From NCBI GenBank assembly GCA_964634945.1, contig CAZWMG010000002.1, positions 102,661 to 166,660 of the forward strand: a DNA stretch of 64,000 nucleotides. Reading direction: 5' to 3'. How positions within the stretch are numbered: the first letter of the stretch is position 1; each line of letters starts with the position of its first letter. This document shows, piece after piece, positions 39,501 through 58,012 of this stretch. Under the pieces are notes generated by a model. The model was given only the letters and a program-made list of their open reading frames with translations, was not told the origin of the DNA and did no database searches. Position numbers and translations under genes: made by a program. This DNA comes from an uncultured Planctomycetia bacterium (GTDB taxonomy: Bacteria > Omnitrophota > Gorgyraeia > JABMRG01).

Positions 39501-42500
39501 CATACTATTGGCGCTTAAAGATAAGAAATTAGTAGACTCGGAAAATTCTATTATTTACAGGGGTTTGTATAAAATATTTAAGAAAACAGAAGATCACCCA
39601 TATACTTTGTTAGGTTACGGATTTATGCCAGGGCTCTCAAGCAAGTCATTTTTAAATGTTATTTCGTTTAATGCTGACGGGGATAAGCTCAATTTGAGTT
39701 TCAAAGACGTTTTTGATAGATTCGAGTCTCACTTTATAGTATCAATCGGAAAGATTAATAACGATGTTATTGCCGGACCAAACCTCGCAGGCATTGACCA
39801 GGGCGATGTTATATACACAGAAGAGTTGATGAGCCTAATAAACCTACTCCGCTTGGAGATAGAAAATTCCAGGGATATAAAAAACAAGGATTATTACAGG
39901 AGAAGGTTGGAATTCTATTCAAGGTCTCTCAGTCACATAGTTGATATGTCAAAAAACTCCAGCCTGATGGATATTCCGCTGGTTGTATCCATGCAAGATG
40001 GCAAGATAGCGGATACATCCAAAAAGAGTGTGGCTCACAGGCACAGGGCAGCAATTTTAAATAACCTTTATCGTTCATCAATAGTCACTTCAGCGGAAAA
40101 CTTTTACAGCAGTATAGGGTATTCACCTGAGAAGATACAGGGCGGCACATTTTTCCGAAAGCTAAAGATAGCAGCGGATAGACAGGCATCTATGCAAAAA
40201 TCCGAGACACAAGAGATCTCAGATGAGAGTTCGAAAAAATATATTATCGCCTTTATTCTGATGATAGCGGCGTTGGCATCTCTTGGTATAGCAAGTTCTT
40301 TTTACAAGGCAAAGCCGTACAAGTCGACCAAGCCTTCTCCGAAAGGTGATGACAGCGGTGATGGAGAAGGTACCCCTCCTGCTGATGAAGGCACAAAAGA
40401 AGCTGTTGTGGCAGCAACGGTATCAAGCTTACAGAAAATTACTATAAAGGCACTTGCTATAGTTAAAAAGGCGAGCCTGCCGAAAAAACTGATGATCTTA
40501 GCTGTTATGTTAGCAATACCGCTCTTACTATCTAATCCGGCATTGTGTGCTGGATTAGGTCTTCTAACTCAACAATCAGTTGTTGCCCTTACCGGTCTGC
40601 CGCTGATATCTTCCGCTTTGAATTGGATAAGCTCATTAGGTGCGGTTAAATTAATATATATCGCGGTATCGCTTGCCTTTCCGGCGTTAATCCTTGCTTC
40701 AAATTACATAACCTCTTTCGCAAGAAAGATATGGTTTAGCACTAAGATGCGCAGTATCGCAAAAGATGGCAAAGCCAAACTGTACGATAAAGATGACATG
40801 GAAATAGCCCTTACCAGGTGGAACAATATGATTAATATGACCAGCGATGTTTCAGATAAGGAAAATAACGTTGTTGTAAATCACCCCAGAGTAAGGAAGG
40901 CAGACGGACCGATTGAGGTAAATTTCCTTTTTAGTCTTCGGGTTATTTATACATTGGCATTAAAACAACATAAAGAAGAAACAAAATTAAGCGATGACGA
41001 TCTTATAACAAAGACAGATGACCCGCTACTTAATGGCCTTGACACTTTTGTACTTATGGTTGGAATGTATATGCGTAAGGTTATCTATGACTCAAAAAGA
41101 GATGAGAATGGCCAATTAGTAGATAGTAACCACATATGGTCAAGGCTCGAATCTTATTTTTATGAAAAGAGAGAGCTTCTAAGAGATGCGATGTCACAAA
41201 ACAATAAAGCGGAATTTAATGATATACTGATAGATATGGGGATTGCCCCGATAGCGCAAAAGAGCGCAACAAATGAAGCGATATTGGAGATAGTCGAAGG
41301 TTATGGAGATGCAAGCTCTGAGGAATTCAGAGACGAGCTGGCAGAAAGAATAGGTGTTTCAGCTGAAGATCTGGGTGTAAAAAAGTTTGTAGAGGATTTT
41401 GAGAATTTTACTATACAAGAGGATTTGGCAAAACCTATCCATCCATGGGCGCTGCTCGCCGCGCGGCTATTGCCAAGGTTCCTGCTTGCTGCGGTTGGAG
41501 CGCTTATATTTAAGGCAGAGGCATTAGGCGCCACTGGTTTCTTAGGTGCTTTTATCGCAGGCCCATTAGCAGCTTTATGGCCTTATCTTGCTATTGCGGG
41601 AATAGTTATTATTCTGGGCTCATTGCTTAATCTGTATATTGGTAGGCATGCTAAATTAAATAAACTATCCGGTACATTAGGCACTGTTTCGCGTCTTACA
41701 AAAATAGGCGCATTAATCGGGCTTACATGCCTTGTTGCCGCTATTTCGCTTACGCCATTAGCTGCGGCAGGCGCTCCTTTAAGCATAATGTGGTTAGCCA
41801 AGCTTATTATAATCAGCTATCTTACTTTCGAAACATTTAGCCAGATATTCTTCAGGCATTCAATAACATGGCTTTCTCTTAGGTATCATTTCTCACCAGC
41901 TGTATCTACGGGTGGCCCTGGTTCTGTCATATCATATGTTACTTTATACGCGCTTACAATAGCTTTCGGAGCGCTTATGGGATTTAGTACTTATAATTTC
42001 TTTGTACAGTTTCAAGCTTTAGATACAATAGGAAGTTTCTTGCAATTAGTAGGGGGAGTGCTTGTATTTATTAATACCTTATATTTGACTAATTATGGTT
42101 TCTGGCAGATGCTTACCGGTGCAGCTTCAGGGGCCGTAAAGTTCCCACTTCAATTATCAGCCTTGATACTTTCTGCCGGAGTCTTTACCTTTGCCTTGCC
42201 GGCATTCTTACCGATTATACCTATTGCCGTGTTACTGATAAATAAGGTTATTAGTTGGATAGTACCTTTAAATAAAAGAAAGCGCCTAAAAGATGAGGCT
42301 GATGAGCAAGATAAAAAGACAGTTCTTGTATATATGGGCGGTGACGCGCTTGGCATGTTCATTAGATTGGCTGATCCCGTAGGGGAATTTATTAACAGAT
42401 GGAAAGCCTTAAGAGGAGAGAATTCCGAAGTTCTTAGTGCAATCAGAAAAGAACTTGGCTGGAAGGGCCTTACTTCGGAGAAAGAATTAGAGGTAGTAAG

Positions 42501-45500
42501 AAAATGCCTGGAAGCATTAAATGCAGCGGAACAAAAAGATAAAGTTAGCCTATTCCATTTGAAGCAGCTTGAAAAAGAATCTGATATGCCAAATATTTTG
42601 AAGATAAATCCAGGTACAGAAGAAAATAAGAAGCTTATAATAGATGGCTGGAGAATAAGAAGGCATCTGGTGGAGATGCTTGGTAAGGCAGGCTATGCTC
42701 AGGATACAGGGATTAATCTTGCAGAACAGGCAGAAAGAATAGGCCAGGATAAAAGCCTAAGCGGTAAGGTATTATTCTATTTCATGCAGAATAAGTATAA
42801 TATGGGCACCGGAGGTGAACCGTATAATTTGAAAACCATAGGGCTTGCTGATGGAAATGATTTAGGCCAGAGAGAACTTCTGGCATTGTTGGTGGAATAT
42901 TTCTTAGGTAACGCAAACAAGGATACGGAACTTATAGATCCCCCTAAAGCGGCATATGTATTATATGACTGGACGCCGTTTGGTTTTAAATCCGCTGCTA
43001 TGAACGCTATTGATATGGTTCCCGAGCACTCATCAGATATAGGTTCTATGGTTGTTATGGACAGGGATGCCACGGTCCATGATCTGGATAGTTATATATA
43101 TGATTTAAAACGAATACGCCGTGATGAAGAGATCGCGATAATAGTGCCTGGCAGGGGAACTACCAACACGCTTACTACAATAGGCAAGGCTTCACAGCTT
43201 ATAGAGGAAGGCCATAGATCGTATTTAAGCGGTGTAATGGGGCTTTTAGGCGGAACTCAGGGCGAGTTCGTTGGTACAGGATGGGGCAACATGTTAAGAG
43301 TTACCATGGCAGAGTCTCTCGAAGCGCTAGGTGCTCCGGATTACCCAACACCTTCCATTACCAAGGCGTTACGAAAAAAACATAAAGGATTCTTTGATAG
43401 GTTATTTGCCAATAGTTTTGGCCTTAGAGGGTATGTACCGAATGCGGTTGGTATAAGCGAAGATATTTGGGCTGTTGTTCAGGCCGGTGAAACGCAGATC
43501 GGACTTGGTAGAATTCCGAAGATGCTCGTATCCAAAGCCTTTTGGCACAAGATACGAGAGACCTTTACTCACGCGGAATGGTTTACAGCCTTTCCAAGGT
43601 GGTCAGGCGGCCTTATGCAGATGAACAATGATATTATTATGCAAAGAGCAACATTCTTTGGTCCGTTTAGTGTCTTTGCAAAAGAGGTGAGGCAATTAGG
43701 GGGCGATTTCTTCACTAGTTCACCTTTCGCGCTTCTTAATATATTGATAATGACCGTTGCGGTATGGGGAGGATTCAGCCCGTTTTATGGTATCCTGCTT
43801 GGTTTTTGGCTTGTAGGGTTTGTGTTTACTAATATATTAATGGTTCATGGGCTCATAGCTTATCTTGAAGGAAGCGGCTTTAATACCATAACAGCATTAG
43901 CCTCAGGTCTTATAGTTGGGGCTTTAATGCCATGGAACCTGCCTCTTATCGCAATAGGTTTTGTTCTTGGAGGATTCATCGTAGGCGGTAGTAAGTGGTT
44001 ATTAAGCAGGCCAAGGGATATGATATTATTTCCTTTACAGCTTGTTATACACGCCTTTGCGCAGATTAAAAACGCCTCTTTGATATCTGTTAAGGCCGCA
44101 AGAAAGCTGGAATCTATGGCAAGTAGGGTCAATGATAACGCAGGTGCATGGGTAAAAGATGCTTCAGAAAGAATGTCTCTCAAGTTTGGCTTATCAGGAG
44201 CAGCATTACCTGTTTCTAGCATAATAGATATACCTGCGGTTAAGAGTGATACCAAGAAAAACTTTATAAGCATGCGCAACATAGCATTTTTAGGAGCCGG
44301 GTCTGTTTTGATAAGCATGGTTGCAGTATACGCGCTTAATATCCAAAATGTTGTAATGCTTTTGGCGGGATTGATATTTAGTGTAGGTATTCTTGAAGGG
44401 CCAAATTATACAAATTTAAAAGAAGGTGGTTATTGGATACGGAATGAATATATGCGGAGAATAGTTGTTTTTGCGCTTAATATTATGCCAAAGGTAGCAG
44501 GAGCAACAGTTGCCGTAACAACGCTTGTGTGTTTACATTTCGCCAGAATTATGCTCCTAACCAATCCATTGGCCGCAGCTATACTCTTTTCTTCAGCTAT
44601 CGCTATAGCAGGCATTGTATATGGCGTATGGAGAAGTACAGATCATTATAAGGTAATAGCTCTACATAAAGCTATCTTGAAAAAGGCTAAGGATAATAAG
44701 AGTATTTTAGAAAGTATGCATCTAAAATATGGCTCAAATGTAGAGTTTAATGACATGACTAACCTGGTAAAGAATAATTACAGGGATATGCTATATGATA
44801 TTGTAACAAGCAAAGAGTATAAAGGCCCAGAAGCATTTGTGAACCACTTAAAAGACTTAAAAGACTTAAAAGACTCAAAAGACTCAAAAGACTCAAGAGG
44901 CTCAAAAGACTCAAAAGACTCAAAAGACTTAAAAGCCTCAAAAGAGAAAGACTTAAGAAAAATAATTATAAGTAAAAGCTTGAAAAAATTAGATACAAAT
45001 TTACTGATTAAGAGAGAGATAAGAACCAGGCTTGTTTCAGAGTTTATCCGCTCGTATAGGCTTAATCTACTTTTGTTCGTATGGATATTTCTCCCAAGTT
45101 TACCGGCGAATATTAATTACTTTCTGCATTCAGGAGGAGACCGTATAATAGAAACAGCATCAGAGTTTTTCAAGCCATTTGTCTTGCCTCTGCAGGTAAT
45201 GTTTTATTATATATTAGCAGGGCAGATTGTTGGTTCTGTGCAGCTTGCATATTGGAAAAACAGGACAGTTAAGATTACAAGGGGTATCGACAGGTTACCG
45301 TTAACAGGCAATAGACAAAAAGCAGAGGCATTATTGTCTTTACTTAAGATATATCTGGAGCAGAGGAGTTATGGTTATGTAAAGAAGACATACAATGATA
45401 TTAAGCTTGTTTTGGGTGCAACGCTTGATTCGTCTCCGATAGAGAGTACACAGGACGATTCTCCATCGCAATCGCTATCACAAACAGCTACTGGTTTTGA

Positions 45501-46583: not shown

Positions 46584-49500
46584 ATGTTTAATAAAGCAAG
46601 AAAAGCTTTTTCTTATTTAGTATTATTTTCTTTCTTTTTGAATAATACAGCTTATGCGGAAATTGCTAACAATTCTACATTGCGATGTATATCTTCTGCC
46701 AATGCACACATTGGGCAGAAGATAGCAAGCAACTTTTTAAATGCCCCACCTGATATAAAATCTTCAAACATTAAAACCTCCTCATCCGGCATTATAACTC
46801 CTGAAGATATATTCACAAGAAAACTCGCGTTAGCGATAATTAAGCCGGATGTCAGTTCTGATATAAATAAAAACATAGCAGCGAATAAGAGCCTCTTTAG
46901 CAGGGATGATATAATACGAGAGCTTGAAGATAAGGGTTTCGAAGTAATAACTACTTTACCTGCAAACGTTTTAACCAGAAGAGATGCGGAAGAGTTCTAC
47001 TCAGAGCATAAAGATAGGCTATTTTTTAGCGATCTTATTGAATATATGACATCAGATGAAAGTGTACCGGTTATATTGCGAGGCCCGGAAAACGCATGGC
47101 AGAAGTTAAGAAATGTTTTAGGGGTAGTGGATGGTAACGAGCAAAATACTTTAAGAGAAAAACTTGGCGCGCATAGGAAACAGCTTCCCGGCAATGTTAA
47201 TATCATATACAACAGAATACATGGATCTGATTCATTTCAGTCAACACTTAGAGAGATTCTTTTCATTGCGGATAAGATGCAAAGTACGCCTTTTCTTGGA
47301 TCCGGCGAAAAACTGCTCATGTCTTTGTCATTGGAATCAGATAGGGCATATTTCTCAGCACTTTACAGGCAGTATAAGCTTCAGTTGCTTGTATTAAATA
47401 GAGCACGTTTCTTAATCAATGCGGATGCTTCGCTGACAAAAGACGACGCTCTTGTAAGAGCCACAGCTTCGATAACAGCTGAACTGAAAAAAACAGGAAG
47501 AGATAAAGACGCCTTAATATTAGCGGATTCCAAGCCGCTTATTATTGGTCAAAGCTTTTTTCCTTCAGCACTACTTTCAGATAAGGATTTTAGAGATAAG
47601 CTAGGAGCGGTTCAATATGATGATATTGCTAATGACCCTAGAAACATAGAGGCCGCGACAGGTGTAACAATGGTACAAAATCCATTAAATGGCGGCATAG
47701 GCCAGGCAATGGACAGGTTGGGTTTCTTAGAGGCTATTTGGCCGGCAACCGGGCGAATAGGAGTGCCTGTGCTTGGCGCAAAGGCTATGGACTGCTATTT
47801 TAATGTTAAGGTAGTAATAAATGGCCAGGAAAAAGAAGCATTTGTAAGCGTTGCTGAAGCTACTATACTCTCTCTTCTTAACGAAGTAGAGAGAGGCTCA
47901 TATAGGCATGGCATCTTAGAGGAGTTTATAAGTAGTGAAACAAGCCAGGCAATGGAAGATCTTAAAAATACAGTATATCTTTACGATAGGCTCGACCCTT
48001 TTAAAGCCGACAAGAGGACATATGGCAATATACTTAAAGAGAAGAATATGTTAGGAATAATGCCGGAGCAGGCGATGTTTCCGCGTTTTGACGTAGAAGA
48101 TAACTACAGGCTTACTGATAAGTATACAGCTCCTGGAAGCCATGGACATTGGGGCGTTTATGCGCTTTCTAACATACCTGATGAAGAACTTCCACAGGAT
48201 GGGAGTATTCAGATAAGGAGCATATTTAATGGCGATGGCATATCTAATTCACCGAACAATGTTATAGCAGGTTGGATGGCGAGAGAAGGCGCGCCTGTTA
48301 TAATGATAACAACCACAAGAGCTCCGATAGATGTAAAGGGTGGTATGTTGGGCGTGGAATATTTAGATGATGAAAAGGTTAGAAAAAATATGCTTGAATT
48401 AGCAGATGCAAAGACAAACGACAAGGAGCAATCTGGTCAGGCTGAACTCTTCAAAAATATGGGTATCTCTGAAACGGGTAAAAATTTTGGCAAAGAAGGC
48501 ATGCAGCTTTTTAATACTAACACAGTGCTCTTGAATGATACAGTTTTGCAGCCATTTTTAAGAGAGTTACGAGAGACACTTGGCATAGAAGAATATAACA
48601 GGGCGATAAGCCCAAAGATGATGATGAAATCTGTTGTACAGAAAGATGGCAAAGAGTATGCCCAGTTAGAAGGCGCTATGGGTTCTTCAATGCTTAATCT
48701 TGCCGGATTTTTATCTACAAATAATGACCCACAGATAATAGACTTATGTAAAAAACATGGCATAGATCCAAATCTATTTTTACGTTTAGTCAATATAGAC
48801 GTAAATAAGAGGACAGATTTCTTCGCTCCTATAAAATTTCCTATAGATTACTGGTTGCAGTTTTTTAGTGACCATTTTACAGTCGATACAACTACATGGA
48901 AGCTTAAGAACCTAAGGCCCGGCCATCTGCCAGCCCTGGATACGCCGGATCAGGATAAGGATGAATACTACTCGAATGTGCTTAATCTGTTTAACCTTTT
49001 TGGAGATAAGGGTGTATTAAATAAAAATAATCCTGTAATGACAAGTACAATTGGCCTTGATCTGCTAAAGCTACGCGGTAAGGTTAAAATAGCCGGTTCA
49101 ATACTACGGGGAAATGTTGTAGTGATAAATGAGGGCGATGGTGTTGCTGATTTAACTACTGGCGAGATACAAACGAAGTTGCTTGCCGATAACATGGTAA
49201 GCCTGGATAATGGCAAGCTGGTCTTAGAGGATGTTGCTATAGTAATAAGGGAGAATGGTAAGGATATAAAAGCAGCTAAGTTGCAAAATAAGGAAAGCAT
49301 AGATATTGTAGTTTCTGCGTTAGTTTCAGATAAGGCCTCCTCAGCAGGCATGAATCAGGAAACAGATATTCCAGCCATCAAGAGTATTGTTCACCAAGCT
49401 AGAGCCGCTCTGACGCAAGAGCGCAAGAAAGGCATAGAATTCGGAACCAGCGGTTTTAGGGGTATAAATAGTTTAAATGAATTAACCGTAGCTATTACAG

Positions 49501-52415
49501 CGCAGGCAAACGTGGATTATATAAAAGAAGCTGGTGACAGAGATAAGGTATTTGTTATCGGCAGGGATACCAGAGAACAGGGGAATGACTTTATTATGAT
49601 TACCGCGGCAGTATTTGCTGATAATGGCATAAAAGCAGTTATCTCGGACGGATATACACCAACTCCTGTAATTGCACATGCCACTGTTGCTAATGCATAT
49701 GGCGGAGCTATAAATTTTACTGCAAGTCATAATCCCCAAGAGTATAAAGGATACAAGTTTACCCCCTCGCATGGCGGGGCTGTGCTACCGGAAGTAACCG
49801 ATGTAATACAGTCGAAAACGAACGATTACCTAAAGCGATTGGAGTCGGATAGCGGAATTATAGCTGCCTTGAATAGCCCATACCTAAAAGCTGCTTTGAG
49901 TTATAAGGAGATGTTTGAGTCTTTTGTTAATTCCGGTGATATTAAATTCATCGATCCAGTAGAGGCTTATGTAGAGTATCTTTTTGGTCTTGAGATGCAA
50001 GGTGTAAAGATATTTGATAAGGTAACAGATTCCCGGCTTGGTGTTATAGCAAGCGGCTTGCATGGAACAGCAGGCCCTTATTTTGAGCGCATCTTTGGCC
50101 CAAAAGGATTAAATAAGCTGGCAGTAGATGTTTTAAATAGAGCGCCAAGAGAAGACTTCGGCCGTTTTAAGAGCCCCGAGGCAAAAGAAGCAAATCTTAA
50201 GGATGTAGTAGATCTTGTCACTAGGCTTGATAATGTGTTAGGTGTTTCAGGTGACGGTGATGCAGATAGAGAAGGAATTATCGATATAAATAGCAAGTTT
50301 ATAGAACCGAATGAATTAGCTGCTATATTTTATTGGTATCTTCATGAGATAAAGGGTCTAAAAGGCGGCGTTGCAAAGACTGTGGCGACTACGAACCTTC
50401 TTAATGTGTTAGCAGGTACGTTTAATGAAGAATGTTATGAAAAACAGGTAGGTTTCAAGAATTTTATGAATGAGATACTTAGCGGAAAGGCTATTGTGGC
50501 TGCGGAATCGAGCGCTCACATAGGAATAAACGCTGTGTCCTGGGATGACGCTTTTTTATGCGCTCTATTAACATATCAGATACTCTCTGATAAGGACAAT
50601 ATTAAGGAGAAGACAGGCGTTGAATTGAAAGCCCTTACCGATATCTTAGATTATATACAGAATAAGGTTGTTAGCAGTTATTTTAGTTTTTATGAGGGCA
50701 AGATACCGGCTGATGAGGCGACAAAGAGCCTGCTTTTAAGCTGGAATCAAAGCCCCGAGATGCTTAGCAGAAAGCTTGGTGAGGAGCAATTGTTATCTAT
50801 CTTGCAATACAATAATTTAGAGGTAGCTCAGATAAGCACTTTGCCAAAAAAGGGGATAAAGGTTGTTCTTAAGGATAGAAGCTGGCTCTGCCTAAGGCCT
50901 TCAGGCACTGAACCGCTGGTAAGATTATATGCGGAAGGGGCAGATAAGGCTGCGCACGAGGCGTCTAAAAAGAAGGAAATTCTTAAAAAGATAGCTCAAG
51001 CTTTATTGAAGGTTGATAAGGAGAAGCAGTCATTAAAGGCCTCCTCATCCGGCACTCAGAGCGCCCAGGATAGTGTAGAGTTAAGCTCTATCAGCAGACT
51101 TTTTTCTCAATTTGTATCCGAAAAGAATCCAGATACTTTAAGAAGTTTGATAAAAACAGCCAGAGAAGCTATGAGGGATACTTATGCAAATCCAGATAAG
51201 AAAGAGATTCTTCACAATGCAATTCTTTTTGCGGAGATGAGATTACTTAGTGAATTTCCGCCAGAATCAACAAAAGATAAGAAGAAACTCCTTTCTAAAT
51301 ACGCGGAATTGGAAAGGCAGTGGCAGAAAATGTTTGAAAAAATGTCACAAGATGCCTATAAAGTTTCAAAACGATATTTTCCAGATGAGTATAATGTGTT
51401 GCAATATAAGCTCAAGATGTATAAGGATTTTTTAGTTGTGCTTAAGCAAGATATGGAAGAGCTAGAAGATAAATTGCTACAGCAGATCTCAGATGCAAAA
51501 TCCTCCTCAAGTGGTGAGAGCAAACTCTCCGCTGAGAGAGCGGATGCTATTGAGGCAGAGCTTGGACATCTCTTTGATATTACAAGAGAGACTATGATAG
51601 AGGGTCTAGCAAAACCACCTATTGTAAAAATTGATCTAGCGAGAGATGATTTCCTGTCTATTGAATTTGCGCTGCTGCTGGAGAGATATAGGCAGATGGC
51701 TGTAAAAGAGTTTGGGGAAAATATAATAATGGATATCTTGCCTAGTAGAAATGGGAACGAAGGCGTGCGTGTGGGCATATCAGTAAAACCAGATAGCGCA
51801 GCAGTTGAATATAAATCTTCCTCATCTGGTATATTGCTTACTGAAAATGATTTAGGCCTTATTGAACTCGCCGCTGATGTAGCGGACCTAAGTGACGCAA
51901 CAGGTACAATAGTATACGATGATACAGCAATGTCAACAGAACAGCAGGGAATATTACGGAACCTTTTAGGCAAGGGTACACAAGGTTTAGCTGACCTAGA
52001 GGCAAAACTGGGATGTGATGTAAGGCTAATGTCACAAGGCGATGTATCGGATAACGCGAATACAATAATAATCTCAGACGGAGAAATTCCGGGTTTTCTT
52101 AATGCCAAATACTTAATCACAGAGCAGACACAGATAGATACTAGTTATATCGCGGTAACTCCTCTCATAGCGATAGCAAAAGGATTATTGGGGCTAGACA
52201 ACATAACAAGCCAGCCGGAACTATATGAAGCCCTTAAGAGTTCAATAAGAAGCATAAGTCAAGGCCTTCTAAATGCAAGCGATATAGAAGCTGCCATAAC
52301 CGCCTATATAAATGGCAGCCCAATGCTTGTAAAATTACCGCCTGCGTCAGTATATGATTATGATAAGCTTGAGCAGTTGTATCGTCAGGCGCTTATGGTA
52401 TTGATCTCCGCGTAA
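46584..52415 (+). CDS. 1,943-aa fusion protein: nucleoside-diphosphate kinase domain + eukaryotic-type UTP-glucose-1-phosphate uridylyltransferase (UDPGP family) domain + phosphoglucomutase/phosphomannomutase domain + Lys/Glu-rich C-terminal region. It has an N-terminal signal-peptide-like segment.
   Basis: NDK (~46815-47250): KLALAIIKPD...GFEV...FYSEHKDRLFFSDLIEYMTSDESVPVILRGPENAWQKLRNVLG...NRIHGSDS. UGPase (~47450-48950): LNGGIGQAMD (LNGGLGTSMG), APGSHGHWGVY (PPGHGDIY), FNGDGISN, TRAPIDVKGGML (TRADVKGGTL), FNTNTVLL (FNTNNLWI). PGM (49430-50990): GIEFGTSGFRG, TASHNP, GDGDADR, RPSGTEPLVRLYAEG. SD GTGGGGGATAAG before ATG. Signal: MFNKARKAFSYLVLFSFFLNNTAYA. Confidence 0.88.
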   Translation: MFNKARKAFSYLVLFSFFLNNTAYAEIANNSTLRCISSANAHIGQKIASNFLNAPPDIKSSNIKTSSSGIITPEDIFTRKLALAIIKPDVSSDINKNIAANKSLFSRDDIIRELEDKGFEVITTLPANVLTRRDAEEFYSEHKDRLFFSDLIEYMTSDESVPVILRGPENAWQKLRNVLGVVDGNEQNTLREKLGAHRKQLPGNVNIIYNRIHGSDSFQSTLREILFIADKMQSTPFLGSGEKLLMSLSLESDRAYFSALYRQYKLQLLVLNRARFLINADASLTKDDALVRATASITAELKKTGRDKDALILADSKPLIIGQSFFPSALLSDKDFRDKLGAVQYDDIANDPRNIEAATGVTMVQNPLNGGIGQAMDRLGFLEAIWPATGRIGVPVLGAKAMDCYFNVKVVINGQEKEAFVSVAEATILSLLNEVERGSYRHGILEEFISSETSQAMEDLKNTVYLYDRLDPFKADKRTYGNILKEKNMLGIMPEQAMFPRFDVEDNYRLTDKYTAPGSHGHWGVYALSNIPDEELPQDGSIQIRSIFNGDGISNSPNNVIAGWMAREGAPVIMITTTRAPIDVKGGMLGVEYLDDEKVRKNMLELADAKTNDKEQSGQAELFKNMGISETGKNFGKEGMQLFNTNTVLLNDTVLQPFLRELRETLGIEEYNRAISPKMMMKSVVQKDGKEYAQLEGAMGSSMLNLAGFLSTNNDPQIIDLCKKHGIDPNLFLRLVNIDVNKRTDFFAPIKFPIDYWLQFFSDHFTVDTTTWKLKNLRPGHLPALDTPDQDKDEYYSNVLNLFNLFGDKGVLNKNNPVMTSTIGLDLLKLRGKVKIAGSILRGNVVVINEGDGVADLTTGEIQTKLLADNMVSLDNGKLVLEDVAIVIRENGKDIKAAKLQNKESIDIVVSALVSDKASSAGMNQETDIPAIKSIVHQARAALTQERKKGIEFGTSGFRGINSLNELTVAITAQANVDYIKEAGDRDKVFVIGRDTREQGNDFIMITAAVFADNGIKAVISDGYTPTPVIAHATVANAYGGAINFTASHNPQEYKGYKFTPSHGGAVLPEVTDVIQSKTNDYLKRLESDSGIIAALNSPYLKAALSYKEMFESFVNSGDIKFIDPVEAYVEYLFGLEMQGVKIFDKVTDSRLGVIASGLHGTAGPYFERIFGPKGLNKLAVDVLNRAPREDFGRFKSPEAKEANLKDVVDLVTRLDNVLGVSGDGDADREGIIDINSKFIEPNELAAIFYWYLHEIKGLKGGVAKTVATTNLLNVLAGTFNEECYEKQVGFKNFMNEILSGKAIVAAESSAHIGINAVSWDDAFLCALLTYQILSDKDNIKEKTGVELKALTDILDYIQNKVVSSYFSFYEGKIPADEATKSLLLSWNQSPEMLSRKLGEEQLLSILQYNNLEVAQISTLPKKGIKVVLKDRSWLCLRPSGTEPLVRLYAEGADKAAHEASKKKEILKKIAQALLKVDKEKQSLKASSSGTQSAQDSVELSSISRLFSQFVSEKNPDTLRSLIKTAREAMRDTYANPDKKEILHNAILFAEMRLLSEFPPESTKDKKKLLSKYAELERQWQKMFEKMSQDAYKVSKRYFPDEYNVLQYKLKMYKDFLVVLKQDMEELEDKLLQQISDAKSSSSGESKLSAERADAIEAELGHLFDITRETMIEGLAKPPIVKIDLARDDFLSIEFALLLERYRQMAVKEFGENIIMDILPSRNGNEGVRVGISVKPDSAAVEYKSSSSGILLTENDLGLIELAADVADLSDATGTIVYDDTAMSTEQQGILRNLLGKGTQGLADLEAKLGCDVRLMSQGDVSDNANTIIISDGEIPGFLNAKYLITEQTQIDTSYIAVTPLIAIAKGLLGLDNITSQPELYEALKSSIRSISQGLLNASDIEAAITAYINGSPMLVKLPPASVYDYDKLEQLYRQALMVLISA

Positions 52416-52543
52416 TAGCTATTTACAAAGCGATAAGTTTACATTTTGAGTATTGCACTATTTTGTAAAGCTTGATCTCCGCGTAATAGCTATTTACAAA
52501 GCGATAAGTTTACATTTTGAGTATTGCACTATTTTGTAAAGCT
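52401..52543. repeat. 81-nt tandem duplication (52401..52481 and 52482..~52543) that recopies the last codons plus the TAA stop of the fusion gene, together with the 34-nt palindromic element
   Basis: ttgatctccgcgtaatagctatttacaaagcgataagtttacattttgagtattgcactattttgtaaagc occurs twice back-to-back. The second copy diverges into the RBS of the next gene. Confidence 0.85.
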
Positions 52544-52552
52544 AAGGATAAT

Positions 52553-54352
52553 ATGAAAAGTATTCTTAAAAAAATAGTTACCTGTTTAGCGACAGCGACC
52601 TTTCTTATTAGTAGTCCTGCCTACCCATCTTCTATGGATACTAACACATTGCGTTCAAAGGCCTCTGTCAATACTCCCGCTAGTCATAATCTGGCCGATA
52701 GGTTCCTAACCAATGATACACAAGATGCGGAAGGTGGGTTTGTTTTTCGTAAGTGGAGCAAGAAGCCTGATACTTTAGCGTTTGGTAAGTATGGAAGTTT
52801 GAGAAGAAAACCCAACAAGCTTACAGACATAGCATTAGCAAGATTTAATTCACAATTAAGAAAGACAAAAAAACGTTTACTGGATGAAGGTTTTTTTAAT
52901 AAAGAAGATTTTAAGGTTGTATTAGAGATCATCTATCCTGCCTATAAGGCCGCAACATATTCCAAGAAGAGGGATACTATTATATTAGATCGTCGTTGCT
53001 TTGGAAATGACGATTTTTTGTATTTTAAGATCAAGCACGAGCTTACTGACCGCAAATTGCCTGAGATAGATATTATAGGAGAGCAGTTTAAAGAGTTACC
53101 TGGGCTAAGAGAACTCTTTACTCTAATTACAGTGGATATCCAAGGCCTTATGCATTTAAGAGATAACTACCGAGGTCGGGCAGAAGATATATTAAAATAC
53201 TGCCGTAGCGTAGGACATCACAACAGAGGACTATTAACATGTTATGAGAAGATAATGAAGAACCCGTCGCTTAATGACCCGTTTGCTTTTACAGAGGACG
53301 TTTTCAGGCTTGTAGAGAGTGAGAGGCGCAAGGCATATTTTCCGAATACGCGTAAAGCAGTTAGAAAAATAGCCAGAAAAAATAGTGATGGCAGCATTAA
53401 TTATGAGATGACCTCCACTATATTAAGGGCTTGGTTGAAGTCAATACACAAGCAGTTTATTGAATTGCGAGATATAAGAGAGGTATCGCAATTCAAGCCC
53501 CTGACAGATTTTAATAAAAATACGCCTATATCGCTAAGGCCATTTATGCCTTACGCTAAGGAGATAGATTACCAGCTTGACAATGATTGTATCTTTCTGC
53601 GGGTAAAGATAGATGATAAAAAAGGCCGGATCAAGTACGCTTACCTTTATATAGGCCTCAATGATGATTGGAATAGTGTATTAGGAAAGCGCGGAAAGAT
53701 CTATAGCTTAACATATCATAAATGGCAGCATACCAGCTCGGGCATATTTCAGTATGTAAATTATGGTACGGAAAAAGAGAGAGGTTTATACTGGGATTAC
53801 CTTATCAGGCTTCCGGTTAGCCAGTTGATAAGCAAGCTCTGCAACAATTCAGGCCAGGACAATCTTAAAAAACTTTTTTCGGACCTATTTAGTGAGTTGG
53901 GGGTAAAAGGCGACATGGGAAGTAAGGCATGGCTTTCTGTAAAAAAGATCGTAGGAAGAAAAAAGGGGCCGAATAATTATTATGTGATAAGGGGCATAAT
54001 TTGGAAACATATTGATCGCAAGCACCCTAAATTGTTCTTAGGTGAGGATAACCTGCGTGACACCTCTGTGGGTGAGGTACCTGCCTGGTTATTGACAGAA
54101 GATTCTGAGATGGGCCCAAAAGCCCTTTCATTTTTAAATCCGCGTAAAAAATGCAGCTGCCCAAATTTTTATGAAGAAGCAGATCGCATATCTATGCGGG
54201 AGATCTTAAGGATGCTAGAAAAAGCCTCTTCTCAACCTATGCAGCAGATGAACCTTTTTGGCGCGGGAAAGCCTGCCCCTGCTGCTATACTTAGTATTTC
54301 CAATATAAGTAAAGCGCAGATTGTAGATTCTGCTATATATATTGCGGCATAG
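52553..54352 (+). CDS. Secreted hypothetical protein (~599 aa from ATG 52553; the ORF track extends to a TTG at 52517)
   Basis: ATG at 52553 is preceded by AAGGA. N-terminus MKSILKKIVTCLATATFLISSPAYPSS is signal-peptide-like. No recognisable catalytic motifs. Confidence 0.6.
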   Translation: MKSILKKIVTCLATATFLISSPAYPSSMDTNTLRSKASVNTPASHNLADRFLTNDTQDAEGGFVFRKWSKKPDTLAFGKYGSLRRKPNKLTDIALARFNSQLRKTKKRLLDEGFFNKEDFKVVLEIIYPAYKAATYSKKRDTIILDRRCFGNDDFLYFKIKHELTDRKLPEIDIIGEQFKELPGLRELFTLITVDIQGLMHLRDNYRGRAEDILKYCRSVGHHNRGLLTCYEKIMKNPSLNDPFAFTEDVFRLVESERRKAYFPNTRKAVRKIARKNSDGSINYEMTSTILRAWLKSIHKQFIELRDIREVSQFKPLTDFNKNTPISLRPFMPYAKEIDYQLDNDCIFLRVKIDDKKGRIKYAYLYIGLNDDWNSVLGKRGKIYSLTYHKWQHTSSGIFQYVNYGTEKERGLYWDYLIRLPVSQLISKLCNNSGQDNLKKLFSDLFSELGVKGDMGSKAWLSVKKIVGRKKGPNNYYVIRGIIWKHIDRKHPKLFLGEDNLRDTSVGEVPAWLLTEDSEMGPKALSFLNPRKKCSCPNFYEEADRISMREILRMLEKASSQPMQQMNLFGAGKPAPAAILSISNISKAQIVDSAIYIAA

Positions 54353-55285: not shown

Positions 55286-56572
55286 ATGACTGCTATAAAG
55301 ACTAAGACAAAGCCAAAGAAGACAACAAAGAATAGAAAACTCCTTATGGCCCTGCTGCTTCTCCTGCTGATCCTGCTTCTGGGAGTAGGAGCAACATTAC
55401 TTCTTAAATTTTCCAGCAAGCCAGGCACATATATACATAAGAACACGAAAGGTGACTATGTATTACTTGCTAATGGCAGGCCTTTAATAGTTAAGGGTGT
55501 ATGTTATAGCCCGATACCGGTGGGAGAGGGTTCTGTATATAACTGGTGGGGAGACAAGGCAAGGCCCTGGATGATTGATGGAAAGCTTATGAAAGACGCG
55601 GGGATAAATACAGTTAGATTTTATGAGCCCGGTGACAAGCCATCACAGGTGAAGAAGGTAATATCGGATTTTTATGATAATTATGGTATATACTCGATCA
55701 TGGGCCATGGTTTGGGTTTTTGGGATTTTCCACATGCGAATTACGCGGATCCTGCCTTTCAGCAACAGATCAAAAGGCAGGTATACCAAATGGTAAAGGC
55801 ATACAGAGACGAGCCCGGAGTATTGGCATGGGTCTTAGGTAATGAAGCGAACTATTCTTTTGATGGAAGCGTAAATCCATGGTCTACCTCAGAGCTTGAC
55901 TCTATTAATAACCCGCGCGATAGAAAATTGGCTAAGGCCAAGATATATTACACATTCTTAAATGAGCTTGCCCAGATAGTTAAAAAGATAGATCCGTCCC
56001 GGCCAGTAGGCTTTGGAAACGGCGAGCTTGGCAGTATAGAGGTCGCAAAAGAGTATTGCCCTGATTTTGATTTTGTAGGTATCATAATCTACAGAGGCAA
56101 GTCTTTCGGCAATATGTTCCGCCAGCTTAAAGATAGATATGGGAAACCATCCATCATTATTGAGTTTGGCTGTGACTCTTACAACGCGTTAAAGCAAGAA
56201 CCGGATGAAGAGAACCAAGCATTCTTTTTAAAGACGCTATGGAATGAAGTAGAGTATAATTCATATACGGGTAAGGGTGAAGGAAACTGTTTAGGCGGCT
56301 GCATATTCGAGTGGAATGATGAGTGGTGGAAGCATGGACAGGATGATATCGGTGAATGGAACCTACAAAATACCCAGGCAGGATGGACTAATGGGTCATA
56401 TTATTTTGATACTGAGGGCAATCCTAATATGAATGAGGAATGGTTTGGGATTGTAACTTTAAAGGCTGAAAAAGAGAATGGCGTTAACAAGAGGGTTCCT
56501 AAAAAGGCTTATTACGATTTGAAGGAGCTTTGGGAGCAAGAGGATAAGGTTACTGCCTGCGACTGGAGATAG
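55286..56572 (+). CDS. Membrane-anchored clan GH-A (TIM-barrel) glycosidase/transglycosylase. Its motif pattern most resembles GH72 beta-1,3-glucanosyltransferases (GH2/GH5-like not excluded).
   Basis: N-terminal anchor LLMALLLLLLILLLGVGATLLL. NGRPLIVKGVCYSP (GH72 FYIRGVAYQ), NTVRFYEP (NVIRVY), acid/base VLAWVLGNEANY, nucleophile block IIIEFGCDSY (GH72 FFSEYGCN), GGCIFEWNDEWWKHG (GH72 SGGIVYMYFEEENKYG). Confidence 0.6.
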   Translation: MTAIKTKTKPKKTTKNRKLLMALLLLLLILLLGVGATLLLKFSSKPGTYIHKNTKGDYVLLANGRPLIVKGVCYSPIPVGEGSVYNWWGDKARPWMIDGKLMKDAGINTVRFYEPGDKPSQVKKVISDFYDNYGIYSIMGHGLGFWDFPHANYADPAFQQQIKRQVYQMVKAYRDEPGVLAWVLGNEANYSFDGSVNPWSTSELDSINNPRDRKLAKAKIYYTFLNELAQIVKKIDPSRPVGFGNGELGSIEVAKEYCPDFDFVGIIIYRGKSFGNMFRQLKDRYGKPSIIIEFGCDSYNALKQEPDEENQAFFLKTLWNEVEYNSYTGKGEGNCLGGCIFEWNDEWWKHGQDDIGEWNLQNTQAGWTNGSYYFDTEGNPNMNEEWFGIVTLKAEKENGVNKRVPKKAYYDLKELWEQEDKVTACDWR

Positions 56573-56701
56573 GTTCGTATAACGTTGTGCGTGATGCGTA
56601 TTGCGCAATGCTAAAACCGCAATACCTGCCTACCGGCAGGCAGGCGCGATACGAGATACTCAATACGAATATTATATAATAATACTTAATAAGGAGCAAT
56701 A

Positions 56702-58012
56702 ATGCAAAAGTTTCTGTCAATAGCGTTGTTTTTAGTTATGGTAAGCGTTACTGGTTGCGCACCCGGAAATGGTGCTGACAAAGTTGCATCGGATAAGATA
56801 ACCGTCTGGCATTGGATGACGGATAGAGAAGGCACCTTTAACGAGCTCGCGGAAAAATATAAAGCGCTTACAGGAACGGATGTTAAGTTTGAGTTATACG
56901 CGCCAACAGACGCTTACAGCGAGAAGATAAAAGGCGCGGCACAGACACAAACCCTGCCTGATGTTTTTGGCATACTAGCCGATAAGAGAGTTATATCATC
57001 GTTTATAAAGGCAGGCCATGTTCTTAATCTCGATACTTATATGGATGCGGATAATGGAAAATGGAAAAAGGTATTTTACGCAAAGGCACTGAATGTTAAC
57101 AGGTTCATGCTGGGTAACGAATTTGGGGTTGCGCCAGGCATCTACGCGGCGCCTTTGGATGTAATGAATATACAGATGCTATACAACAAGGATCTGTTTA
57201 AGAAGGCAGGCCTTGACCCGGAGAACCCACCCAGGAACTGGGCAGAATTTTTAGATGCCGGAAACAAGCTTCACGCTGCCGGCATACAAGGCATGGTAAG
57301 CGGATGGGGAGAGATCTGGATGATAGATTGTCTCGCGTCTAATTACGCGTATAATATAATGGGTGAAAAGAAGTTTATTGACACTATCAAGGGAGAGGTC
57401 TCATATGCTGATCAGGACTGGATAGATGTCTTTACTGTTTTTAAAGATATGAGAGACAATAACCTGCTTGCCAATGGTATCGTTACTATGGTCAACAAGC
57501 ACGCGGAACAGATGTTTGCGAACCAACGCGCCGCGCTGGCATTTAATGGTTCATGGTGCGTAAATGTATATCATGGCATGAATCCGGATCTGAATTATGG
57601 CGCAATGTTGCCACCTGCGTATTCAAATAAATACCCTATGAAGATATGGGGTGGAGCGGGTGCCAGCCTTATGGTTAATGCTAGGACTAAAGATAGAGAC
57701 AAGGTCGTTGAATTCTTAAAATGGTTTACAGCTAAAGGCCAGCAGGCATATTTAGCGAATGAGACACGCAACCTGCCCGCTAATAAAGATAGCCTTGGTG
57801 AGATATCTCCCGTATTAGCGCAGTTTGTTGATGATATGGATAGCGTTACCCATCCGAACAATCTTAATGTTTCAGAGTTTCCTAAGGTTATAGAAGCGCG
57901 AGATAAGGGCATACAGTCTATTGTAATAGGCGAAAAGACCCCCGAAGAAGTCGCTTTAGAGGTGCAGGCTGTTAAGATAAGAGAGATGGGAAAAGCAGGG
58001 GGACTCTCCTAA
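56702..58012 (+). CDS. ABC transporter extracellular solute-binding lipoprotein, carbohydrate family (SBP_bac_1/MalE-like)
   Basis: Lipobox VSVTGC; KITVWHWMTD, NIQMLYNKDLFKKAGLDPENPPRNWAEF, typical sugar-SBP length and motifs. SD AAGGAG. Confidence 0.85.
   Translation: MQKFLSIALFLVMVSVTGCAPGNGADKVASDKITVWHWMTDREGTFNELAEKYKALTGTDVKFELYAPTDAYSEKIKGAAQTQTLPDVFGILADKRVISSFIKAGHVLNLDTYMDADNGKWKKVFYAKALNVNRFMLGNEFGVAPGIYAAPLDVMNIQMLYNKDLFKKAGLDPENPPRNWAEFLDAGNKLHAAGIQGMVSGWGEIWMIDCLASNYAYNIMGEKKFIDTIKGEVSYADQDWIDVFTVFKDMRDNNLLANGIVTMVNKHAEQMFANQRAALAFNGSWCVNVYHGMNPDLNYGAMLPPAYSNKYPMKIWGGAGASLMVNARTKDRDKVVEFLKWFTAKGQQAYLANETRNLPANKDSLGEISPVLAQFVDDMDSVTHPNNLNVSEFPKVIEARDKGIQSIVIGEKTPEEVALEVQAVKIREMGKAGGLS

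Follow-up and report, generated by a model that had tools for sequence, protein, structure and literature searches.

A kinase, a pyrophosphorylase and a phosphoglucomutase fused behind a predicted signal peptide beside an Omnitrophota giant gene

Results

A giant gene and a multi-enzyme fusion at one locus

The window, meaning the whole stretch of 64,000 nucleotides that was analysed, carries a giant open-reading frame of 14,300 residues and, starting 161 nt after its stop codon on the same strand, the fusion gene studied here. The fusion frame runs from ATG to stop with no internal stops or frame breaks. An identical protein was recovered from an independent assembly of a public run (Logan SRR29008691, L005) and is also present in NCBI on a 172-kb contig, indicating that the frame is not an assembly artefact. 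The closest named homolog belongs to Ca. Gorgyraea atricola. In a scan for promoters and terminators, counts did not depart from those of shuffled sequence, and both intergenic gaps lacked a terminator.

The window has the features of an Omnitrophota giant-gene locus, namely a giant with signal and transmembrane (TM) segments and a SecA-like domain, and a solute-binding protein, permeases and glycosyl hydrolases downstream, as described for such loci (West-Roberts et al. 2023, 10.1101/2023.11.21.568195). The features surrounding the fusion are:

3520..46422, + strand: giant ORF, 14,300 aa, with a signal-like N-terminus and three TM clusters (ORF call, hydrophobicity, Pfam)
5794-5811, 8389-8406 and 45598-45615, + strand: junction motifs of the giant (motif scan)
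11215-12456, + strand: SecA-like P-loop of the giant (domain scan)
14806-15195, + strand: two LysM domains of the giant (domain scan)
42277..44079, + strand: giant aa 12920-13520, a TM-flanked, GT-A-fold synthase-like region (motifs, weak model)
45598..46419, + strand: tail module of the giant, type B, the last 274 aa, beginning KTSSAG and ending ...VVATQA (homolog comparison)
52517..54352, + strand: 611-aa ORF with the same leader type as the fusion and a T-L-R-S motif, probably a further family member (ORF call, leader alignment)
55286..62571, + strand: two GH2-type TIM-barrel glycosidases and an ABC sugar importer made up of a solute-binding protein and two permeases (domain scan)

The fusion joins three enzymes in one polypeptide

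Judged from domain scores, active-site motifs and a structural model, the fusion is one long protein that very probably joins three enzymes leading from glucose-6-phosphate to UDP-sugar. Its parts are:

46584..52415, + strand: whole fusion ORF, 1,943 aa, a leader and five motif-delimited modules (ORF call, Pfam, homologs)
46584..46658, + strand: predicted Sec/SPase-I-type signal peptide, aa 1-25, with an n-region of charge +3, an h-region of ~11 aa and A-Y-A before the predicted cut (classical rules, conservation)
46659..46772, + strand: conserved pro-region, aa 26-63, with an (S/T)-L-R-x-x-S motif common to family members (homolog alignment)
46773..46790, + strand: junction motif 1, KTSSSG, aa 64-69 (motif scan)
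46815..47279, + strand: nucleoside diphosphate kinase (NDK) domain, aa 78-232, with AIIKPD, FYSEHK and the catalytic His in NRIHGSDS (Pfam, PDB alignment)
47310..49331, + strand: UDP-sugar pyrophosphorylase of eukaryote-type UDP-glucose pyrophosphorylase (UGPase) fold, aa 243-916 (Pfam, motifs, AF2 model with Foldseek)
49332..49349, + strand: junction motif 2, KASSAG, aa 917-922, in the pLDDT<50 tail of the AF2 model (motif scan, model)
49416..51023, + strand: phosphoglucomutase (PGM; alpha-D-phosphohexomutase, four domains), aa 945-1480, with TASHNP, DGDADR, AESS and RPSGTEP (Pfam, PDB alignment)
51036..51053, + strand: junction motif 3, KASSSG, aa 1485-1490 (motif scan)
51054..51497, + strand: module 3, aa 1491-1638, no family, its sole match a weak ATG17-like/coiled-coil-type one (profile scan)
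51498..51515, + strand: junction motif 4, KSSSSG, aa 1639-1644 (motif scan)
51516..51812, + strand: module 4, aa 1645-1743, common to homolog P0002 (homolog comparison)
51813..51830, + strand: junction motif 5, KSSSSG, aa 1744-1749 (motif scan)
51831..52412, + strand: tail module, type A, aa 1750-1943, ending ...ALMVLISA (homolog comparison)

In the Pfam scan, the NDK domain (PF00334) scored 67.3 bits over aa 106-228 against a gathering threshold (GA) of 27, and it matched NDKs in the PDB at E 1e-13, with NRIHGSDS aligned to the NAAHGSDS of solved NDKs and the catalytic His kept. The nucleotide-site Lys (AIIKPD) and Tyr (FYSEHK) are both present; the phosphate-binding Thr of the G-A-T-N-P loop is not conserved. 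The four PGM_PMM domains I-IV (PF02878/02879/02880/00408), spanning aa 951-1460, scored 105.9, 49.7, 53.1 and 37.3 bits, all above GA, and in alignments to solved phosphohexomutases (1tuo/2z0f) their four catalytic loops are matched by FTASHNP, DGDADR, AESS and RPSGTEP. The residues on which the earlier note had staked both assignments, the NDK His and the Ser of TASHNP, are thus in place on alignment to solved structures. The module shares its four domains and four loops with the alpha-D-phosphohexomutases of Thermus (2z0f/1tuo) and Salmonella (2fuv/3na5) and with human PGM1, and differs from them in being one motif-bounded module inside a protein with a secretory leader. PGM scores fall far below the NCBIfam equivalog cut-offs, so that a preference for glucose, mannose or glucosamine is not fixed.

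The pyrophosphorylase is divergent, UDPGP (PF01704) reaching 19.6 bits in the full-length scan (GA 22) and 24.3 bits when aa 243-925 were scanned alone; relatives P0010 and P0011 have precomputed PF01704 matches. A profile of the core searched against the PDB gave just E 0.18 to yeast Ugp1, a result superseded by a fold search with an AF2 model of the module (pLDDT 75.5, pTM 0.70), which settled the identity. The best 31 PDB matches of this model are eukaryote-type UDP-glucose pyrophosphorylases (Foldseek E 3e-14 to 7e-11, probability 1.00), with UDP-GlcNAc pyrophosphorylases ranking after them at ~1e-8. The module carries LNGGIG, GSHGH, NGDG, DVKGG, FNTN and QLEG, and the signature loops LNGGxG, GHG, the DVKGG Lys and FNTN are all present and nearly invariant among 12 family members. 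The core is ~70% identical across mosaics, with long invariant stretches. To yeast Ugp1 (2i5k) and Leishmania major UGP (5nzj/2oef) it is alike in fold, including a C-terminal beta-helix (E 3e-14), and in the colinear motifs LNGGxG, GHG, NxD, DVKGG, FNTN and E-G-x-x-G. It is unlike these enzymes in having ~200 aa more, with insertions and a helical extension at the N-terminus, in its TM-score of ~0.5 and borderline Pfam score, in its fusion to an NDK, and in an identity of 15-17% to eukaryotic UGPases. The assignment to the eukaryotic UDPGP type rather than to GalU holds on fold matches and signature loops. The further proposal, that this domain echoes a eukaryote-like synthase module in the giant, is not supported: the sequences closest to the core come from prokaryotes (CPR Roizmanbacteria and others), at 29-37% identity against the 15-17% of eukaryotic UGPases. 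The neighbours of a stand-alone Roizmanbacteria homolog include an aldose epimerase, a galactokinase and an epimerase of the GalE type; this Leloir-type setting supports a role as UDP-hexose pyrophosphorylase. This context suggests use of galactose or a general, broader use of UDP-hexoses; the sugar need not be glucose.

With the three identities and intact active-site residues, the biochemical logic of the proposed route from glucose-6-phosphate through glucose-1-phosphate to UDP-hexose, with NDK making UTP, was upheld. The NDK, fused directly to the pyrophosphorylase, can in principle make UTP from UDP and ATP for it: a junction motif never falls between NDK and pyrophosphorylase core in the window protein, P0002 or P0005, and in a related 1,990-aa fusion UDPGP is paired with a cytidylate kinase.

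A conserved leader with the properties of a signal peptide

The N-terminus quoted in the earlier note, MFNKARKAFSYLVLFSFFLNNTAYA, matches the sequence. Assignment was rule-based (n-region charge, an h-region of ~7-15 aa, small neutral residues at -3/-1), and by these classical rules the segment, which the whole family conserves, is predicted to be a cleavable signal peptide of the canonical Sec type. At the protein level the leader is conserved with P0002 (44% over aa 6-80, E 1e-18), and homologs P0002-4, P0008 and P0009 show the same pattern of a positive n-region, an h-region of 11-13 aa and small residues at -3/-1 (A/V-x-A/G). No 19-residue window of the leader reaches KD 1.6, a value attained only by the 11-residue core of aa 9-19, and the hydrophobicity scan found no TM-like segment elsewhere in the fusion. 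The short h-region, the lack of a 19-residue TM window and the small -3/-1 residues in every homolog speak against the membrane anchor for which this segment had been taken. The positive n-region and charge bias predict that the bulk of the fusion lies outside (N-in, C-out) and not on the cytoplasmic face. We consider the chances of export to be evenly balanced.

A junction hexapeptide separates the modules

The hexapeptide K-x-S-S-(S/A)-G occurs five times in the fusion, against 0.0036 occurrences expected, and marks every module boundary. Across 25 instances K, S, S and G are each invariant (25/25) with variable flanks. In orthologous giants, where the surrounding sequence is only ~40% identical, the motif keeps its place 270-275 aa before the C-terminus. 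Among 143 other large proteins in which the giant's synthase-like region recurs (296,037 aa), the strict motif was found 0 times, which makes it a lineage-specific feature and not one general to Omnitrophota giants. Its two central Ser codons are TCY-TCA in 8/8 instances in the window and varied TCN, never AGY, in homologs. A nucleotide-level signal was rejected because the codons vary among TCN in homologs; the pattern fits long-standing selection on Ser and not a fixed RNA or DNA element. Lying in disordered linkers, the hexapeptide is a tentative candidate for a processing (or modification) site; it could instead be a linker or modification site. No peptidase family was detected in the ORFs of the window, the first modules of the giant, the giant tail or the 611-aa ORF.

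Residues 1485-1943 of the fusion (~460 aa) have no Pfam match and form three further modules. The claim of a tri-enzyme fusion stood for the NDK, UGPase-type and PGM domains, and it missed this C-terminal part as well as the family context. Tail type A recurs at the ends of P0002 and P0003 (53-67% identity); no Pfam family is related to it, and its profile against the PDB returned nothing. Homologs of the giant's type B tail end P0004 and P0007, and also the long genes that precede the fusions in L004, L007 and L009/10. Equating the two tail types was rejected, as hhalign gave a probability of 4% with only the junction motif aligned; the apparent similarity in a MAFFT alignment was forced.

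A mosaic family linked to giant genes

On the evidence of its homologs, the fusion is a member of a narrow, clade-restricted mosaic family (Omnitrophota, Gorgyraea-like), built of a Sec-type leader, a short pro-region, modules bounded by K-x-S-S-(S/A)-G and a ~200-aa tail. Within the family NDK+UGPase is found as a pair in new combinations with further enzymes (6PGL, GDPGP1-like, HEAT/HD), and sister fusions carry radical-SAM, kinase and HD modules. A genome and metagenome contig search with the core alignment returned no related loci; it used only two exact peptide patterns, and the distribution was therefore taken from protein searches and look-ups of the encoding contigs.

A synteny check in relatives upheld the proposed linkage to the giant gene. 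Five related loci have a UDPGP-core fusion following a long gene that shares the giant's tail. In L001/2, L004, L007 and L008-10 the fusion is the next gene downstream, and the last ~280 aa of the long gene product are homologous to the giant's tail at 40-44% identity (E 1e-53 to 1e-58). On this conserved gene order the fusion is probably a companion of the giant gene. A PilZ gene follows the giant in L001/2, L007 and L008-10 and is absent from the window, where the 161-nt gap contains no ORF. The picture of a dedicated, single-purpose supply line was not sustained, as NDK+UGPase is one cassette whose partners vary, and as related giants lack the synthase-like region beside their tail.

The synthase-like region of the giant

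The TM-flanked region of the giant contains the motifs DRDA, RGTTNT, EEGH, GTGWGN, ISED, KIRE and PRWSGG. It seems to resemble processive GT-A synthases (GT48 FKS1/callose synthase; GT2 BcsA/HAS/chitin synthase) in placing a putative soluble GT-A-like domain between two TM clusters and in its series of D..., ED, K-x-R and RW-type motifs, and is unlike them in having no sequence or profile similarity to any. PF02364 had no match in the giant, 7 relatives or 12 family members (E<=10), and neither phmmer nor the family profile gave a match to FKS1; the only PF02364 match, a precomputed one, lies on a different giant, in L002. A weak model of the region, whose confidence is low where the catalytic motifs lie, gave a GT-A fold of generic kind, and GT2 processive synthases, not FKS1, were among its top matches. 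The GT48 label given to the giant is unproven. The family of this region has 143 representatives, almost all inside proteins of 1-8 kaa. A homolog search with giant aa 12600-13750 gave no matches, TM-rich words having probably swamped the candidate list.

Discussion

At a probability of about 0.45, we favour the reading that the fusion is a modular multi-enzyme companion of the Omnitrophota giant-gene locus, exported and possibly cut at the junction motif. The PGM would convert hexose-6-phosphate to hexose-1-phosphate, the UGPase-fold pyrophosphorylase would turn hexose-1-phosphate and UTP into UDP-hexose and PPi, and the NDK would supply UTP from UDP and ATP. If the leader is a cleavable signal peptide, the fusion would follow the leader-dependent route of the giant and be active outside the inner membrane of the producer. 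It could then act at the envelope or surface, or target an attached host or prey cell, inside it or against it, where sugar phosphates and NTPs are available. The hexapeptide would allow the chain to be cut into single enzymes, and the most plausible consumer of the UDP-hexose would be an activity of this locus that builds glycan, for instance the giant's GT-A synthase-like module. Against export, neither the periplasm nor an open medium supplies the NTPs, sugar phosphates and cofactors on which the three enzymes, like the sister radical-SAM, kinase and HD modules, depend, and processive GT-A synthases take UDP-sugar on the cytoplasmic face, which would put an exported supply line on the wrong side. 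Against processing at the motif, no protease was found in the window and no cleavage was observed. The type A tail of the fusion is not detectably homologous to the type B tail of the giant.

A rival model builds on the earlier note: a fusion on the cytoplasmic side, tethered by its N-terminal segment or docked by its tail, channels UDP-glucose into the giant's synthase module, which faces the cytoplasm. Every substrate is found in the cytoplasm, the biochemistry of UDP-hexose supply is complete and the sister modules make sense only in the cytoplasm. The linkage to giant genes is conserved, one related giant has the precomputed PF02364 match, and the giant has a TM-flanked GT-A synthase-like region, the GT-A domain being cytoplasmic in the known processive synthases FKS1 and BcsA (PMC10499315). 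We nevertheless find this model doubtful, given the short h-region without a TM window and with a conserved A/V-x-A/G cleavage motif, the positive-inside rule, which places the C-terminal bulk outside, the varying fusion partners, the synthase-like region not being conserved beside the tail of related giants, its unproven GT48 identity and the unrelated tails. An exported trio running in the catabolic or salvage direction on lysed or attached prey material is improbable. UDP-hexose and PPi would yield hexose-1-phosphate and UTP, hexose-1-phosphate would become hexose-6-phosphate, and the NDK would pass the phosphate of UTP to ADP, so that sugars and nucleotides would be pre-processed before the adjacent ABC importer takes them up. 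Each of the three reactions can run freely in both directions, and the rule-based signal peptide, the downstream glycosidases and the ABC sugar importer would fit. Extracellular sugar pre-processing by the glycolytic and PGM domains of giant proteins has been proposed (West-Roberts et al., 10.1101/2023.11.21.568195), and a host-dependent or predatory way of life has been reported for the phylum (PMC10066038). Phosphorylated sugars, however, are not substrates of sugar importers of the solute-binding-protein type found at the locus, PPi and ADP would be required outside the cell, and the tight NDK-pyrophosphorylase fusion is more naturally a UTP supply. Decayed or moonlighting domains (structural, adhesive or scaffold), or an annotation or assembly artefact joining separate genes, can be given next to no weight: the sub-threshold UDPGP score of the full-length scan and the unconserved NDK Thr (GATNP loop) are in its favour, but every catalytic loop checked is intact, the core is conserved across mosaics, and the uninterrupted ORF is identical in two independent assemblies.

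A further and rather unlikely reading takes K-x-S-S-(S/A)-G as the site at which a secreted polyprotein system is processed. The giant and its companion fusions would leave the cell by way of the leader they share and be cut at the hexapeptide into single enzymes, released outside the producer, and a membrane body of >12,000 aa. MARTX toxins are mosaic arrays of catalytic modules that undergo processing. By analogy, the fusion family combines unrelated catalytic modules, reshuffled among relatives, with short conserved inter-module sites; it differs from MARTX toxins in having no cysteine protease or repeat regions and in modules that are central-metabolism enzymes, and its cleavage is hypothetical.

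All three catalytic domains are ordinary, and the fusion alone would be a modest addition. Omnitrophota giant proteins are known to carry PGM/PMM and glycolytic domains predicted to be extracellular, and their cleavage has been proposed with the cleavage points unknown (10.1101/2023.11.21.568195); long proteins with a signal peptide only, or with signal peptide and TM segments, and with sugar-metabolism modules have been catalogued ('Module 2 sugar metabolism', 10.64898/2026.06.07.730766). The window proteins share with these the lineage, signal peptides, PGM/PMM and sugar domains and, in the giant, a SecA-like domain; unlike the published giants, the fusion is a 1.9-kaa, signal-peptide-only companion. 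Multi-enzyme, signal-peptide-bearing long Omnitrophota proteins are thus already catalogued and the junction motif is not. In a term search, NDK, UDP-glucose, pyrophosphorylase, glucan synthase and GT48 gave no match in either paper, and the K-x-S-S-(S/A)-G boundary motif, the conserved leader and pro-region and the shared tail modules were not found in either.

The fusion is the cleanest form of a localisation paradox, since it pairs a predicted signal peptide with three NTP- or sugar-phosphate-dependent enzymes and has no other TM segment, making the excuse of an overlooked TM helix, offered for giant proteins, inapplicable. The leader, the hexapeptide-bounded modules and the shared tails together form a testable grammar that links companions to the giant and shows where to cut for expression, structure prediction and proteomics. 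If the polyprotein reading were true, Omnitrophota giant proteins would have their first defined cleavage grammar, and the released nucleotide-sugar enzymes would act, for example, in or on a host or prey. A UDP-hexose supply line beside a GT-A synthase-like module suggests that these loci may build, and not only degrade, glycan.

Sequence and predicted structure of the fusion

In the window, which has a G+C content of 40%, an uninterrupted open-reading frame encoding the fusion lies directly downstream of a giant gene:

3520..46422 (+), giant ORF, 14,300 aa
46584..52415 (+), fusion ORF, 1,943 aa, separated from the giant by a 161-nt gap

The identical fusion protein is present on an NCBI 172-kb contig and in an independent assembly of run SRR29008691, and the ORF described in the earlier note, with exactly these coordinates, is therefore real and not an assembly chimera. 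A Pfam scan placed an NDK domain at aa 106-228 (67 bits) and all four phosphoglucomutase (PGM) domains at aa 951-1460, all far over their cut-offs, confirming both domain calls, while UDPGP (PF01704) scored 19.6 bits in the whole fusion (cut-off 22) and 24.3 bits when aa 243-925 were scanned alone. In alignment to solved NDKs, NRIHGSDS of the fusion corresponds to NAAHGSDS, the phospho-histidine site, AIIKPD and FYSEHK are conserved, and the one missing residue is the GATNP-loop Thr. Aligned with 1tuo and 2z0f, the phosphoserine, Mg2+, sugar and phosphate loops of PGM read FTASHNP, DGDADR, AESS and RPSGTEP, respectively, so that the catalytic His of NDK and Ser of PGM (TASHNP) named in the earlier note are both present.

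Because profile matches of the UGPase-like middle module, here called the core, were weak (E 0.18 against yeast Ugp1, in three colinear pieces), its relatives were gathered and aligned and its structure was predicted with AF2 (pLDDT 75.5, pTM 0.70). The best 31 PDB matches of the model in Foldseek were eukaryote-type UDP-glucose pyrophosphorylases (E 3e-14 to 7e-11, probability 1.0), followed by UDP-GlcNAc pyrophosphorylases at ~1e-8, and the signatures LNGGIG, GSHGH, NGDG, DVKGG, FNTN and QLEG are near-invariant among core relatives. Given this ranking and these signatures, the predicted fold makes "eukaryote-type, not GalU" correct as a family statement. The eukaryotic link drawn from it is not supported: the closest relatives are prokaryotic (CPR Roizmanbacteria and others, 29-37% identity), identity to the eukaryotic enzymes is 15-17%, and this comparison gave no sign of a eukaryotic origin of the core. 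As read from the sequence, the enzymology of the fusion is solid, a route from hexose-6-P through hexose-1-P to UDP-hexose in which NDK gives UTP.

A stand-alone 586-aa core homolog without a recorded Pfam match occurs in Roizmanbacteria (CP065004.1, 1-10790; locus L006), where an aldose epimerase and a galactokinase lie upstream of it and a GalE-type epimerase directly follows; trehalase/GH63-like genes lie in between. This locus looks like a Leloir-type route with a pyrophosphorylase replacing GalT. Its gene content supports a putative role of the core as a UDP-hexose pyrophosphorylase, and the sugar used may extend beyond glucose alone.

A mosaic family built around the core

Homologs share parts of the fusion, not its full length. 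The conserved unit is the core, ~70% identical, with or without NDK, and its partners differ:

P0002 (3,327 aa), NDK, core, 6-phosphogluconolactonase/GlcN6P-isomerase-like, GDPGP1/DUF4922-like, weak PGM-like region
P0004, core, HEAT repeats, HD domain
P0005 (Ca. Gorgyraea atricola, Omnitrophota), HEAT repeats, NDK, core

The C-terminal ~330 aa of the fusion (aa 1617-1943) match the last ~330 aa of P0002. Judged by these architectures, the fusion is a modular member of a mosaic family that the earlier note overlooked. Two unrelated tail modules of ~200/270 aa (types A and B) occur, type A in the fusion, P0002 and P0003 and type B in the giant, P0004 and P0007, with no detectable homology between the tails of fusion and giant (hhalign probability 4%). 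A short non-polar stretch with Ala as its last residue closes the leader-bearing long proteins checked (…VLISA at window 52398-52412, …VATQA at 46405-46419, …YAAA and …NIAA in ORFs of related locus L001, …LIAA/…LISA in P0002, P0003, P0004 and P0007), an 823-aa ORF of locus L007 (…SVTKII) being the exception; such ends recall C-terminal recognition tags or PDZ ligands.

A shared leader and a junction hexapeptide

All full-length family members, a set including the fusion, the 611-aa ORF of the window and the three mega-fusions of L001, begin with a positive n-region, a hydrophobic core of 11-13 residues and A/V-x-A/G; next come a conserved stretch, (S/T)-(A)-L-R-x-x-S, and then the first hexapeptide. 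The N-terminus of the giant is of the same type, but its hydrophobic part is longer (IIFKCISIIIILCFFI) and its predicted cleavage point reads S-A. No 19-residue window of the fusion reaches TM-like hydrophobicity and no further hydrophobic segment is present. Classical rules would class the leader as a cleavable Sec signal peptide and not as an anchor; if left uncleaved, its charge bias would still place the bulk of the protein outside. The proposal that a membrane anchor docks the fusion to the synthase thus finds no support in the sequence. The 611-aa ORF (52517-54352) carries a leader of this type and a T-L-R-S motif, is weakly similar to the fusion N-terminus (E 0.048) and has a sub-threshold fucose-pyrophosphorylase match (E 0.008) as its sole other match; it could represent a further companion protein of the nucleotide-sugar type.

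The hexapeptide K-[T/S/A/V]-S-S-[S/A]-G is found at each inter-module boundary of the family proteins, with seven copies in P0002, five in the fusion (expected from shuffles, 0.0036) and three strict copies in the giant:

46773-46790, fusion aa 64
49332-49349, fusion aa 917
51036-51053, fusion aa 1485
51498-51515, fusion aa 1639
51813-51830, fusion aa 1744
5794-5811, giant aa 759
8389-8406, giant aa 1624
45598-45615, giant aa 14027, 274 aa before the C-terminus
6721-6738, giant, variant KSASSG

In the giant, the strict copies enclose a body of >12,000 aa; no other ORF of the window contains the hexapeptide. All 25 of 25 instances keep K, S, S and G while the flanks vary, and the orthologous giants of L007 and L009/10 retain the hexapeptide 270-275 aa before their ends, where they are only ~40% identical. 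It never interrupts the boundary between NDK and core, which therefore form a fixed didomain, and it sits in the disordered tail of the AF2 core model. TCN codons, never AGY, encode both central Ser residues throughout, which we read as probable old, strong selection on Ser and not as a nucleotide signal. The strict hexapeptide has no occurrence in 296,037 aa of 143 other large proteins with the synthase-like region of the giant and is therefore restricted to this clade. We regard the hexapeptide as a candidate site of processing or modification.

Gene neighbourhood and the identity of the giant

A UDPGP-core fusion follows a long gene in every related locus with upstream sequence (L001/2, L004, L007 and L008-10). 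In L004, L007 and L009/10 (L001 and L002 contain too little of the upstream gene for this comparison), the last ~280 aa of the long gene are homologous to the tail of the giant (40-44% identity, E 1e-53 to 1e-58), with the terminal V(A/S)TQA kept in two of the three tails. A ~113-aa PilZ ORF separates long gene and fusion in all related loci with enough sequence (L001/2, L007 and L008-10); the gap in the window (46423-46583) holds no PilZ gene. The 850 aa ahead of the tail in L009/10 do not match the synthase-like region of the window giant, so what is conserved is linkage to the giant itself and not to a synthase module in particular. The functional unit proposed earlier finds support as a giant-gene companion.

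Neighbours in related loci are leader-bearing mega-fusions with radical SAM, epimerase, ROK, DHQ synthase, GDPGP1-like and PHP domains. Among them is a 1,990-aa protein (L009 3861-9833, also in L008 and L010) joining B12-binding radical SAM, UDPGP (39 bits), HD and cytidylate kinase domains; its predicted domains make it another, independent case of a nucleotide kinase paired with a UDPGP-type nucleotidyltransferase. Also in L009, P0008 (417 aa; 10001-11254) and P0007 (1,185 aa; 11227-14784) overlap by 28 nt and jointly make up one UDPGP-like core, probably one gene that a frameshift or sequencing error has broken in two. The giant of the window is flanked by:

174-3275, AcrB-family RND pump, upstream
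55286-62571, two GH2-type TIM-barrel hydrolases, a lipoprotein solute-binding protein and two ABC permeases, downstream

Pfam matches in the giant were confined to two LysM domains and a SecA-like P-loop. The SecA-like P-loop/preprotein-binding region (11215-12456) lies upstream of the first TM cluster, and the LysM domains (14806-15195) lie inside a duplicated ~70-aa segment just past it. Four tandem ~82-aa repeats (WPEGTKGNLSAFVNNVL...), some near-identical, start at aa 8990, 9072, 9154 and 9236 (window ~30487-31300). The GT48 candidate, the loop between the two C-terminal TM clusters (aa 12920-13520), matched neither a Pfam family, with E<=10 allowed, nor a PDB sequence, and its AF2 model was poor (pLDDT 59), with no match in Foldseek. 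An exhaustive HMMER search returned only 143 representatives of this synthase-like family, nearly all within 1-8-kaa proteins; PF02364 and GT2 were matched in none of seven relatives and in none of the 12 aligned members, and the family profile does not reach FKS1. A precomputed PF02364 match is present on a giant of the related locus L002. DRDA, ISED, K-x-R and PRW are invariant in the family and resemble DAN, E1221-D1222 and K1246/R1248 of FKS1 and the D,D,D/QxxRW set of BcsA (PMC10499315). We hold with moderate confidence that the giant carries a TM-flanked GT-A synthase-like module; its membership in GT48 is unproven, and the label given to the giant in the earlier note was not borne out by PF02364 or FKS1 matches.

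Relation to reported giant genes and localisation

Giant genes of Omnitrophota are reported to carry SecA-like domains and to be followed by PilZ, solute-binding proteins, permeases and glycosyl hydrolases (West-Roberts et al., 10.1101/2023.11.21.568195), a conserved context matched by the downstream genes of the window. The same authors describe PGM/PMM and glycolytic domains "predicted to be in an extracellular region" and suspect cleavage, "information about cleavage points" being missing and no site given. In a 2026 preprint (10.64898/2026.06.07.730766), PGM is listed within a catalogued set of sugar-metabolism modules, and 39% of long proteins are classed as SP+TM and 9% as SP only; the word "cleavage" is absent from it by term search. 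Term searches found "nucleoside diphosphate kinase", "pyrophosphorylase", "UDP-glucose", "glucan synthase" and "GT48" in neither text, and within the library searched no paper paired Omnitrophota with "glucan synthase". The fusion is a new variant inside an already reported class of proteins.

Its localisation is not settled, as the sequence points to export and the substrates to the cytoplasm. A fusion that stays cytoplasmic as a supply line to the synthase is a serious rival, consistent with the substrates of all three enzymes; against it stand the leader and the synteny, which follows the giant and not its synthase-like region. The SecA-like ATPase of the giant, predicted outside the membrane, presents the same paradox. 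With moderate confidence, we favour the fusion as a leader-dependent companion of the giant that would act beyond the inner membrane of the producer, most sensibly where it touches a host or prey cell, and that may undergo cleavage at its hexapeptide junctions. The hexapeptide, the most interesting by-product of this analysis, makes whether and where these proteins are processed directly testable.
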